Part shown: positions 54,901 to 56,326 of the stretch, piece by piece
Layout: each line of letters opens with the position of its first letter
Numbering within the stretch: position 1 is the stretch's first letter
Notes under the pieces: model-generated
Databases searched by the model: none
Seen by the model: only the letters and a program-made list of their open reading frames with translations
Told to the model about the DNA's origin: nothing
Source of the DNA: Candidatus Thorarchaeota archaeon
Lineage (GTDB): Archaea > Asgardarchaeota > Thorarchaeia > Thorarchaeales > Thorarchaeaceae
DNA: 64,000 nucleotides
Direction: 5' to 3'
Assembly (NCBI GenBank): GCA_963726195.1
Contig: CAVSBO010000005.1
Span: 128,001 to 192,000, forward strand
Position numbers and translations under genes: made by a program

Positions 54901-56326
54901 TCTGGATGCTGGCCAAGTAGTCGAATGCTTTCTGAAGATTGAGCAGGCCGGCGCCTGCATCGTTGGCGCCCGCGTTGAGTGGAGTAGCTGTGTCTCTCAG
55001 AACATTGGTAAGCACGATGGGAGTCGCTCGGTCGAAGGCTTCCATTAGGAGCGCGAGAGCACCGGCTGTCACCGCTGCCGCCGCAGCAGTCGAATCCGCC
55101 TTGATGTAATAATCGTTTACTGATTGACCAAATGAGCCGCCCAGAAGACCGGAAAGGCCGCCTATGTCCCCCAGACTGAAGGAGCCGAACCCTGCGGTTG
55201 AGAGCGCTTGCCCTGCCTTCGCTCCAACGATGCCGACTCCCGGGGCGACGATATCGGGCTTGGTCAACATGCTAAGAGAAGGTCCTCTACCGGAGAAGGA
55301 CGGCACTTGGCTCTTAGCAGTGTCATAGGCACCAACTGTCAACACGCCGTCGTTTCCACCTGGCGACATTATCGTTAGGTAATCGGGACCATCATCGCCA
55401 GCTGCTGCGACAACCATCACACCCTTCTCTGCAGCCGCCTTAACCGCGGCTGATACGGCATCACCGGGTGATCCGAAGGTGTTGAAAGGCATGAGTATAA
55501 TATCTGCTCCCCTGCTGCAGGCCCATTCTATGCCCGAGGCAATCCAACTCGGGGCTGCATAGAGTCCTTCAAGCGTTACCTTAGCAGAGAGCAAGGTTGC
55601 GCCCGGTGCGATTCCCTTGTAGAGGCCCTGCGACATGTTCCCTGTGCCGGCTGCTATTGAAGCGGCGTACGTGCCATGCCCTATGATGTCAACTGGTAGT
55701 GTGTCGCCTTCCACAAACGACGCATACGCTGTTACCTTAGAGTCTGTGGTGTTGGGGTTATCATCGAAATCGTCTAGGTCATGGTGATTGTAATCGACAC
55801 CAGTGTCCAGTACTGCAATGACCACTCCTGAACCGTTGTATCCTTTTGCCCACAATTGCCTAGCACCGGTCGTGTCAACAGGCGATTGATACCCGCCTCC
55901 CGAAGCTGTCTGCGTGGAGGTTGTCGCACTTGCTGCTATTCTTTTGACATCGTTCGACCAGATTCCAGTGATGATGCTACTCGTCGCCAATTCCTTAATC
56001 GCACTGCCAAGCAGTCTTACTCTCATCATGCTCATTTCGTTGAGAACCTCAACAATCTGAGCTTGTCGATCAGTCATGCTGATTGCGCTGCGAGCTTGGG
56101 ACTCCCCAGCCTGTTTGTCGTAGCCCACAAGCACATCTACTTGTTGCTTTGAGTCCGTCTTGTCTATCAGGGCGCGGTCTATCTTCGCCTCGCTTGAGGA
56201 GACCTGTGCTCGCTGAGCCGGCACATTTGAGGAACCGGCCATCGAACTGAGGATAACGGATACTATCAACAGTGTAGCTGCGGTCTCCATACTGCGCTTG
56301 CTTGTTAGCCTGCAACCCACTTCCAA
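51986..56326 (-). CDS. Membrane-anchored S8 subtilase homologue, predicted inactive (Ser to Ala), with GIFT/ABC_transp_aux-like domain and cytosolic helical tail
   Basis: Signal peptide and prodomain; VLDTG (Asp) and GHGT (His); AAAGDDG; KPDIVAPG; but ADSTAAAAAVTAG in place of SGTSMAxPxVAG. Later DTSH...GGKLVIFGD...NLTALNLLL and a C-terminal TM. Confidence 0.8.
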   Translation of the reverse strand: MEVGCRLTSKRSMETAATLLIVSVILSSMAGSSNVPAQRAQVSSSEAKIDRALIDKTDSKQQVDVLVGYDKQAGESQARSAISMTDRQAQIVEVLNEMSMMRVRLLGSAIKELATSSIITGIWSNDVKRIAASATTSTQTASGGGYQSPVDTTGARQLWAKGYNGSGVVIAVLDTGVDYNHHDLDDFDDNPNTTDSKVTAYASFVEGDTLPVDIIGHGTYAASIAAGTGNMSQGLYKGIAPGATLLSAKVTLEGLYAAPSWIASGIEWACSRGADIILMPFNTFGSPGDAVSAAVKAAAEKGVMVVAAAGDDGPDYLTIMSPGGNDGVLTVGAYDTAKSQVPSFSGRGPSLSMLTKPDIVAPGVGIVGAKAGQALSTAGFGSFSLGDIGGLSGLLGGSFGQSVNDYYIKADSTAAAAAVTAGALALLMEAFDRATPIVLTNVLRDTATPLNAGANDAGAGLLNLQKAFDYLASIQTPIKPHNRTTGIPLIAYGLLTSAGRGASTDVLMSSFGTSVVALDQRRGQNSTVHLLMGMYSLRWGNSSPTNLMEFNVKRELHQVVMSSGIYSYNRWIGIISYGSVYVILLVESYNLTLTNPNPITGFKVTPFILNLGDGPISNVSLFLSYSLDLFLDSKNDHGKYALQNQELFAYSISSDYKSFYFGLNSSRPLSAFEVGNSSTISSKVSNDNLSSSTSYDGSVGLAAKWDFGVVYPNTPVNVTIAMGFAENRTMLDTCISTMWRMHPSTQFTSNGDLIVVEAEIPRVAIAGQTYQSRAVIMNVGVNRSQMVGALIVGQGVTGGGTIFSRFYSFSQVEPFHAEILTTEWSPSANGIYTAAWVVAAGIQFAIALFANPAGTLVTGGVGLLDDFLLRDLFVVTPIASTSVFPRLGPFAPFDIRFPSDFGIYSFSLSTNVPLGNVTIAKYGNASDWGNTTLPAQDSVVGYYNFSLFLFAPSITPDGYHRCVYQILTEVGWTTNITFEVRLQYARAMMLLDTSHGGGLSFGLGGGSGSSSSLSSGGTGGLSLSLASLSQLSSLSDLLEQMRMTTFSGLSEMKRLMALRGLDLIETPGVTLTADLLSQFSAVFIMSPTKAFNTTEVGLMRNFTADGGKLVIFGDYDGRANLTALNLLLSPYGYVMSGKHTDDNTSEIIQSSLLGHGLQYVWLGGGTYILNNQSNTAVTLHTMPVILLDQSPPELVLFGSSRIFMNKNLPKCNNTHLLDNLNEYLLSNTLTCVTSLAENTTRYPVGRSVYINLRVSDYNGNPVDNLTIYVAFKLPNGSLAFFIAGFVQDGLYSSQFTPSYYSSSGRVYGIFIIMKTEKYAGTFAGVAFDLFVPVTTSTTEGPGALLTMLQVALITSVGVFGSTILGLTMNRVRRKRKMRIPEVDPQLQREIDNSLNNLLAAFLQMEELIHREDLDRVQKIETLRGLMRGLEEARKRFDKVSRTIGGV

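Follow-up and report, generated by a model that had tools for sequence, protein, structure and literature searches.

What does a subtilase do when alanine occupies the place of its catalytic serine? The question is raised by a gene on the minus strand of a 64,000-nucleotide stretch of Candidatus Thorarchaeota DNA (contig CAVSBO010000005.1, positions 128,001 to 192,000 of the forward strand), which we call the window. The encoded membrane protein combines a Peptidase_S8 (subtilisin-fold) domain with a GldG/IFT52-type (GIFT) domain. A reading of the letters alone, hereafter the sequence-only reading, had taken it for a pseudoprotease. Here, we report that the protein is very probably not a working serine protease, as judged from its sequence, and that the pseudoprotease reading extends to a whole Asgard-wide clade. 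The ectodomain is built like human site-1 protease (S1P), and the gene lies in a tight run with genes for an ATP-binding cassette (ABC) transporter of the ABC-2 family. We consider it fairly probable that the protein is a non-catalytic, S1P-shaped pseudo-subtilase that serves this transporter as an extracytoplasmic accessory subunit.

The S8 domain lacks the catalytic serine and the oxyanion asparagine

The Peptidase_S8 match (Pfam PF00082) covers residues 165-455 at 7e-44, with 150.7 bits against a cut-off of 21.8. By sequence, the closest protein of solved structure is Tk-SP, a protease of Thermococcus (3afg, 9ues), which was found at 3.6e-41 when PDB chains were searched with phmmer. In the resulting alignment, D-S-T-A-A-A-A-A-V-T-A-G of the window protein lies without gaps against P-G-T-(S)-M-A-T-P-H-V-A-G of Tk-SP and Ala414 falls in the nucleophile column; AAGDDGP lies against AAGNSGP and Asp311 falls at the oxyanion Asn. 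The two Tk-SP entries are unprocessed or inactive forms according to their descriptions and both print Ala in the nucleophile column, where we take the wild-type residue to be Ser. Compared with the Asp-His-Ser triad of active S8 peptidases, the protein has the Asp and the His (Asp174 and His217) and has Ala414 at the Ser position; the Asn that active enzymes carry in the oxyanion hole is Asp311. An Asp at this position would place negative charge where the oxyanion needs stabilising.

Two other features of the site depart from known subtilases. A Gly-rich insert (residues ~372-397) has no counterpart in Tk-SP and is kept in the orthologue consensus; its predicted local distance difference test score (pLDDT) is below 50-60 in both of the models described below. 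The substrate-cleft strand reads L-M-P-F-N, compared with N-M-S-L-G in subtilisin. The sequence-only reading had called the Ala codon (GCT) at the nucleophile, the Asp at the oxyanion position, the surviving triad Asp and His and the Gly-rich insert ahead of the site. These calls agree with codon 414 and with the Tk-SP alignment, in which ~24 residues of insert are missing from Tk-SP.

The altered motif is shared by orthologues and the domain is highly conserved

A search with residues 140-520 yielded 120 full-length relatives at 60-89% identity, or 121 sequences with the query. Those that are named come nearly all from Candidatus Thorarchaeota and are annotated as 'S8 family serine peptidase'. 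Full-length orthologues span 1434-1491 amino acids, and the public-database version of the window protein begins at Met13 and has 1434. In the nucleophile column there are 63 Thr, 48 Ala and 10 Ser. The oxyanion column is Asp in all 121 sequences, inside an invariant G-D-D-G-P-D loop, and the triad Asp is present in 119. The triad His is present in 113, and the other eight have Ser or Pro. Around the nucleophile, Thr or Ser stands in place of Gly219, and Ala takes the place of Met222 and, in most sequences, of Pro225. Positions 412 and 413 always carry a hydroxyl residue, and 73 of 121 sequences have Thr or Ser at 414. The sequence-only reading had asked whether orthologues carry GTS at this site. 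None does, and the ten Ser-bearing sequences, two of them also without the His, always have the Ser in a remodelled T-T-S-A-[SA]-A-A context together with Asp for Asn155. In subtilisin-type enzymes, substitutions of Asn155 and changes of Ser to Thr cause the rate to fall by orders of magnitude, which makes residual activity in the Thr and Ser orthologues unlikely.

In an orthologue tree from which the motif columns were left out, at least 23 changes are needed at the nucleophile column, which ranked 32nd of 314 S8 columns in changeability (median 5). This places the former catalytic position among the least constrained sites. The column appears to tolerate any small residue that is one base change apart (GCN, ACN, TCN). 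We also computed regional conservation on 53 orthologues as the majority fraction per column. The S8 domain is the most conserved region, with a mean of 0.79 and 85 of 315 columns invariant; the values are 0.70-0.72 for the beta-sandwich, GIFT, Ig-like and tail regions, 0.67 for the stalk-and-transmembrane region and 0.54 for the prodomain. Such strong conservation of a dead domain is the mark of a pseudoenzyme that selection maintains.

At least five further S8 genes, with canonical G-T-S and A-A-G-N motifs, occur in the genome of the window (G000, 2.9 Mb, 88.9% complete), and a genome-wide oddity of S8 genes is ruled out by these paralogues. At least four genes with canonical motifs are found within ~27 kb of another contig, C3 (~631-658 kb; loci L002 and L005-L011). 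In L002 and L009/L011, the Asp, His and Asn motifs are in a different reading frame from the Ser motif, in one case with an internal TAG; these splits are either assembly-error frameshifts or real pseudogenes.

Predicted loss of catalysis is ancient and clade-wide

With residues 31-520 as the query, an exhaustive HMMER search over 1.84 billion cluster representatives returned 50,740 hits. Among the best 150 of these, ~30 also share the C-terminal 926 residues, and those with names belong to Loki-, Hel-, 'Ran-' and other Promethearchaeota (Asgard) archaea. In a FastTree phylogeny of the S8 domain, these ~30 group with five shorter relatives in a single clade (36 cluster representatives, local support 100). 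The full D-H-N-S set occurs in none of the 36. The main states are DHDA (9), DRDG (7), DSDT (4) and DRNG (3). Ser is kept in only four representatives, all without the Asn and two without the His, and the His is absent from 21, where it is replaced by Arg, Ser, Glu or Ile. Asp is at the oxyanion position in 32 of the 36. Outside the clade, D-H-N-S is present in 103 of 113 representatives, including 15 of 15 in the sister clade. The loss of catalysis predicted from these residues is ancient and clade-wide.

When genomes of the phylum were scanned with the C-terminal part, the family was found in 107 of 301, spread over 8 of 30 sampled families. In the family to which the window belongs, 72 of 76 sampled genomes have it, most of them with a single listed match.

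A sister-clade protein of 1516 amino acids (P0185), apparently active with D-H-N-S, shows weak similarity to DUF4350/GIFT immediately behind its S8 domain (28.2 bits, cut-off 30.4). This suggests that fusions of S8 and GIFT are not confined to the pseudo-subtilase clade. Active prokaryotic S8-GIFT proteins may thus exist, which bears on the origin of S1P.

The ectodomain is built like human site-1 protease

The protein has a type-I layout that runs from a signal segment through an I9-like prodomain, the S8 domain, beta-sandwiches, the GIFT domain and an Ig-like domain to a single transmembrane helix and a cytoplasmic tail. Two AlphaFold models were made. Model 1 (residues 31-520, pLDDT 75) has a confident prodomain (pLDDT ~88-94) and a subtilisin fold. 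A family profile aligns from the propeptide of ProN-Tk-SP on (profile 53-370 to chain 28-340; 2.2e-55). When model 1 was superposed on pro-forms (pro-subtilisin E and ProN-Tk-SP; 3whi, 3afg), only residues 113-445 fitted, and canonical docking of the prodomain is unsupported. Model 2 (residues 156-1355, with 52 diverse family members) reached a pLDDT of 85.7 and a predicted template modelling score of 0.83. It contains, in order, the S8 domain, ~490 residues of beta-sandwich, an alpha/beta domain with a disordered Gly/Ser loop and an Ig-like sandwich.

Compared with subtilisins by VIA, the S8 domain gave Z scores of 38-42 at root-mean-square deviations of 1.6-2.1 Å. The top Foldseek hits of model 2 were chains of human S1P (9csd_A at 2.4e-25 and 8uw8_A at 1.9e-24, over 1142 columns), ahead of plain subtilisins. 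VIA-align superposed 573 residues on 8uw8_A at 4.8 Å (Z 38.2; model 1-1071 on chain 200-872), with S8 and GIFT fitted together, and no other subtilase was aligned over more than 326 residues. A single superposition of this length means that the S8 and alpha/beta domains are placed relative to each other as are the S8 and GIFT domains of S1P. The first beta-sandwich domain is located where S1P has its P-like subdomain in a collinear alignment. S1P itself consists of prodomains, an S8 domain, a P-like sandwich, a GIFT domain at 617-998 and a membrane anchor, and loops supported by the GIFT domain hold its oxyanion Asn338 (PMC11231238).

The assignment of the GIFT domain also draws on profile searches. 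In Pfam, the window protein matched IFT52_GIFT over residues 1064-1135 at 26.2 bits, below the cut-off of 27.2. In a scan of six family members, two exceeded this cut-off (P0126 with 30.5 bits and P0142 with 27.3 bits), and P0129 matched DUF4350 above its cut-off (43.4 bits). No scanned member reached the ABC_transp_aux cut-off of 34.7 bits, the best scoring 31.4. A C-terminal profile of six sequences (A3) reached the IFT52 GIFT structures 5fmr, 5fms and 8bd7 at 3.4e-11 to 1.4e-10, and reached S1P at a marginal E-value of 0.11, aligned to the start of the S1P GIFT domain. A phmmer search of PDB with the C-terminal 926 residues alone returned nothing at E <= 1. No NCBIfam family reached its cut-off, the best being mycosin (117 bits, cut-off 279).

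In model 2 the protein has the S8 domain packed on a GIFT domain, the arrangement that marks the S1P family, and it has Ala414 and Asp311 where that family has catalytic residues. By sequence, Tk-SP and subtilisins are nearer to its S8 domain than S1P, which is not among the 60 best PDB hits, and no Pfam family named for S1P was among the matches at E <= 0.01. We describe the protein as built like S1P and do not name it an S1P.

The gene adjoins genes for an ABC-2 transporter

The pseudo-subtilase is the third gene of a tight minus-strand run (Table 1), which opens with an ABC-2 permease and a long ABC ATPase, continues past the pseudo-subtilase with a second ATPase and a giant repeat protein and is closed by a gene for a TPR protein. 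Using tblastn with the window proteins, we compared 14 other distinct loci. The long ATPase is beside the family gene in nine of them (L014, L015, L016=L024, L018, L020, L021, L023, L025 and L027), which come from several families and go down to ~20-25% identity. Eight of the nine have a permease too, and the sequence of L027 stops within the ATPase. The second ATPase follows the pseudo-subtilase immediately in L016/L024, L021, L025 and L027, and it lies close by in L014, L015, L018, L020 and L023. In the closer loci (L016/L024, L025) it is followed by the giant protein. The arrangement known for GldG-type proteins, encoded beside an ABC-2 permease and an ABC ATPase, is thus found in the window and in nine of the 14 other loci.

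Some details of these neighbours vary. The more distant members L014, L015, L020 and L023 have two ABC-2 permease genes and two ATPases, with the short ATPase at the far end and sometimes on the opposite strand. The N-terminal extension of the long ATPase (~250 residues) has a weak match to the TrmB effector domain and persists in distant loci, whose ATPases are 547-571 amino acids long. The giant protein consists in the window of two overlapping open reading frames (731 and 1580 amino acids) with a beta-propeller and many TSP3 calcium-binding repeats. In L016 its counterpart is one gene of 2196 amino acids, which suggests that a frameshift has split the copy in the window.

Table 1. Positions in the window of the pseudo-subtilase gene, its parts and its neighbours (aa, amino acids; AF2, AlphaFold; ORF, open reading frame; VIA, structure comparison)
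Feature	Position	Strand	Basis
Whole gene, pseudo-subtilase/GIFT membrane protein	51986..56326	minus	ORF list and translation, 1446 aa/codons
N-terminal hydrophobic signal/anchor segment, aa 13-35	56222..56290	minus	Translation; majority fraction only 0.29
I9-like prodomain, aa ~45-125, beta-alpha-beta-beta-alpha-beta	55952..56194	minus	Profile alignment and AF2 model
Peptidase_S8 (subtilisin) fold domain, aa 156-475, predicted non-catalytic	54902..55861	minus	Pfam PF00082, PDB phmmer, VIA
Asp174 (GAC), equivalent of triad Asp32, kept	55805..55807	minus	Alignment and translation
His217 (CAT), equivalent of triad His64, kept	55676..55678	minus	Alignment and translation
Asp311 (GAT) at the position of oxyanion-hole Asn155	55394..55396	minus	Tk-SP alignment, AAGDDGP loop
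Gly-rich insert, aa ~372-397 (~24 residues), just ahead of the former Ser helix	55136..55213	minus	Gap in Tk-SP alignment
Ala414 (GCT) at the position of nucleophile Ser221	55085..55087	minus	Tk-SP alignment
Beta-sandwich domains, ~490 residues, aa 494-984	53375..54847	minus	AF2 model 2 secondary structure, pLDDT mostly 85-95
GIFT (GldG/IFT52-type, DUF4350-like) domain, aa ~985-1228	52643..53374	minus	Pfam, profile, superposition
Gly/Ser-rich loop within the GIFT domain, aa 1002-1031	53234-53323	minus	Translation and model
Ig-like beta-sandwich, aa 1229-1335	52322..52642	minus	AF2 model 2 strands 1074-1175, pLDDT ~90
C-terminal transmembrane helix, aa 1344-1368, then Arg/Lys cluster	52223..52297	minus	Hydropathy scan
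Cytoplasmic tail, 78 aa, helical, charged, conserved	51989..52222	minus	Translation; majority fraction 0.71
ABC-2 family permease, 393 aa, first gene of cluster	58035..59216	minus	Pfam ABC2_membrane_3 1.1e-20
Long ABC ATPase, 580 aa, TrmB-like N-terminal extension, ends 6 bp upstream of the pseudo-subtilase ORF	56333..58075	minus	Pfam ABC_tran 3e-26, Regulator_TrmB 2.9e-4
Second ABC ATPase, 326 aa, begins 1 bp past the pseudo-subtilase stop codon	51004..51984	minus	Pfam ABC_tran 7.7e-26
Beta-propeller/TSP3-repeat giant protein, after the second ATPase	44272-51040	minus	Neighbourhood annotation

The protein also contains 28 N-glycosylation sequons. Residues 831-850 of the ectodomain (53777-53836) match the transmembrane helix in hydrophobicity (Kyte-Doolittle 1.86 and 1.82, respectively). 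In the model this segment is a strand followed by short helices, at lower confidence (pLDDT ~58-80), and it may belong to a buried core or dip into the membrane. The S8 insert and the GIFT loop are two Gly/Ser/Leu-rich loops that are alike in composition (GGL/GLS-type), and both are modelled at low confidence.

Discussion

The favoured reading can be set out as a sequence of steps. With Ala at the nucleophile, Asp at the oxyanion position and a remodelled GTSMAxP motif, the S8 domain would be unable to cut peptides or its own prodomain. The dead domain, packed on GIFT as in human S1P, would form a ligand- or protein-binding head, and the uncleaved prodomain would possibly be part of that head. 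CspC of Clostridioides difficile is a pseudo-subtilase that keeps its prodomain uncleaved and acts as a sensor (PMC6636752). Because there is no nucleophile for self-cleavage, the Thorarchaeota protein probably keeps its prodomain as CspC does, and by this analogy its retention uncleaved is plausible. The whole protein would be an extracytoplasmic accessory subunit of the co-encoded ABC-2 transporter (permease and two ATPases), as GldG is for GldA/GldF, with the membrane helix and conserved cytoplasmic tail coupling it to the transporter or to the ATPases. Possible roles of the invariant acidic G-D-D-G-P-D loop are to bind a cation or to touch GIFT where the S8 and GIFT domains meet. A binding, chaperone or sensor role fits the strong conservation of the dead domain. 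We infer the transporter role, by analogy, from the GldG-type GIFT/ABC_transp_aux/DUF4350 signals together with the gene linkage; that the protein works with the ABC transporter is, taken by itself, about an even bet.

Several points weigh against this reading. There are no ABC genes nearby in 5 of the 14 other loci (L012/L022, L017, L019, L026), and the link to the transporter is thus frequent and not obligatory. In model 1 the prodomain is off the canonical docking site, with a linker pLDDT below 50. The altered cleft strand makes classical peptide binding in the cleft uncertain. We infer inactivity from the sequence, and weak or self-processing activity is possible in the Thr (63) or Ser (10) orthologues that have the Asp and His. 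The acidic loop, compared here with the loops past Asn338 of S1P, and the cytoplasmic tail may have the proposed roles by analogy only.

The strongest alternative, which we nevertheless think rather unlikely, is a stand-alone protein: a non-catalytic surface receptor, adhesin scaffold or transmembrane sensor that signals via its cytoplasmic tail and has the ABC genes as uncoupled neighbours. This would agree with the five loci that have no ABC genes, with the conservation of the tail (majority fraction 0.71) and with the sequons and C-terminal anchor, which are expected for an archaeal surface protein; CspC sets a precedent for a pseudo-subtilase sensor that works alone. However, the genes abut in the window, with gaps of 6 bp and 1 bp, and the long ATPase adjoins the gene even in lineages at ~20-25% identity. 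A protein of the GIFT/ABC_transp_aux/DUF4350 type is also typical of ABC accessory proteins.

We hold it to be improbable that the protein is an archaeal counterpart of S1P related to it by descent, which would capture a membrane-protein substrate, such as the giant surface protein of the same gene run, and present it to a separate active protease. S1P is the best structural match in PDB, with S8 and GIFT superposed together, but the sequence of the S8 domain is closest to Tk-SP and subtilisins, with S1P outside the 60 best hits. The order prodomain, S8, beta-sandwich, GIFT and transmembrane helix is the same in both and the host is an Asgard archaeon; against this, the GIFT profile reaches S1P only at E 0.11, the Pfam matches at E <= 0.01 name no S1P family, and an active subtilase of the sister clade, P0185, also has a weak DUF4350 match after its S8 domain.

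It is very improbable that the protein remains proteolytic through a non-canonical nucleophile (Ser412 or Thr413, or Thr/Ser414 in orthologues), at least to the extent of removing its own prodomain in the manner of PCSK9. Most Thorarchaeota orthologues retain Asp174 and His217, but the His is lost in eight of them and in 21 of the 36 clade representatives, and the oxyanion Asn is Asp in all 121. The hydroxyls at 412 and 413 are invariant and 73 of 121 sequences have Thr or Ser at 414, yet column 414 flips freely among Ala, Thr and Ser (at least 23 changes) and is Ala in the window protein. Thr220 is conserved in active subtilases as well, which makes its presence here uninformative.

A sequencing or assembly error, or a decaying pseudogene, has a negligible probability and is refuted by the orthologues and the conservation: a single T-to-G change would make GCT from TCT and the same assembly has S8 paralogues with motifs in two frames (L002, L009), but the open reading frame is intact over 1446 codons and collinear with orthologues, the S8 domain is the most conserved region, and the whole GTSMAxP motif and the oxyanion residue are altered across 120 independent assemblies, in keeping with the earlier remark that several nearby residues differ and that one base error would not suffice.

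Beyond these readings, a bolder proposal is that the Asgard-wide clade is the archaeal sister of eukaryotic S1P, the archaeal branch having become the non-catalytic head of an ABC-2-driven surface machine with the neighbouring giant calcium-repeat protein. We regard this as doubtful. If it is true, the ectodomain of S8, P-like, GIFT and transmembrane parts, with S8 packed on GIFT, predates eukaryotes and the surface machine is of a kind not yet described.

Whichever role applies, the family matters in several ways. The label 'S8 family serine peptidase' misleads, as the evidence says that none of these proteins is a normal serine protease, and such mislabelling affects protease counts and metabolic readings of Asgard genomes. 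Large, exposed at the surface and linked to an ABC-2 transporter and a giant repeat protein, the family is a candidate component of the Asgard cell surface, about which little is known. The family is also a natural, ancient case of a subtilase that became a pseudoenzyme, and one whose residue losses can be placed in order.

Comparison with known systems

Tk-SP of Thermococcus kodakarensis (3AFG, 9UES) is the closest solved S8 protein structurally as well as by sequence (Z 41.9, 294 residues at 2.1 Å). It differs in being an active secreted protease without the Gly-rich insert, GIFT domain or transmembrane helix.

Human S1P (MBTPS1/SKI-1; 8UW8, 9CSD) shares with the Thorarchaeota protein the prodomain, S8 domain, beta-sandwich, GIFT domain, single transmembrane helix and short cytoplasmic tail. 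By contrast, S1P is active and self-processing, with the Asp-His-Ser triad and Asn338 where the Thorarchaeota protein has Ala and Asp, and no ABC transporter is encoded with it. The Thorarchaeota protein has in addition ~350 residues of beta domains and the Ig-like domain. It is the only prokaryotic protein among those compared that has the whole S8-GIFT build of human S1P, which makes the origin of the eukaryotic enzyme testable. In the limited literature collection that we searched, we found no publication linking Asgard archaea with the GIFT domain and no match naming Asgard among those on S1P and subtilisin.

GldG, which works with GldA/GldF in the gliding ABC-2 transporter of Bacteroidota (Pfam ABC_transp_aux, PF09822, GIFT), is similar in being a protein with a GIFT-type extracytoplasmic domain that is encoded with an ABC-2 permease and an ATPase. 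GldG is not known to have a subtilase domain, and its membrane topology is different.

The pseudoproteases CspC and CspA resemble the Thorarchaeota protein in having a subtilisin fold with a degenerate triad that is kept by selection for a non-proteolytic role. CspC differs in being a soluble spore protein with a jelly-roll insert that lacks both the His and the Ser (Thr170, Gly485), and it has no GIFT domain, transmembrane helix or ABC partner. The NCBIfam model for such proteins (NF040808, CspC_non_triad) gives 47.1 bits against a cut-off of 675; the Thorarchaeota protein is not a member and the resemblance is one of kind only.

Together, these comparisons separate what is known from what is new. 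Pseudo-subtilases (CspC, CspA), GIFT proteins that accompany ABC-2 transporters (GldG) and the joining of S8 with GIFT (S1P) are already known. Their combination in an ancient, Asgard-wide dead S8 protein with an S1P-like build, encoded beside an ABC-2 transporter, is new to the literature searched.

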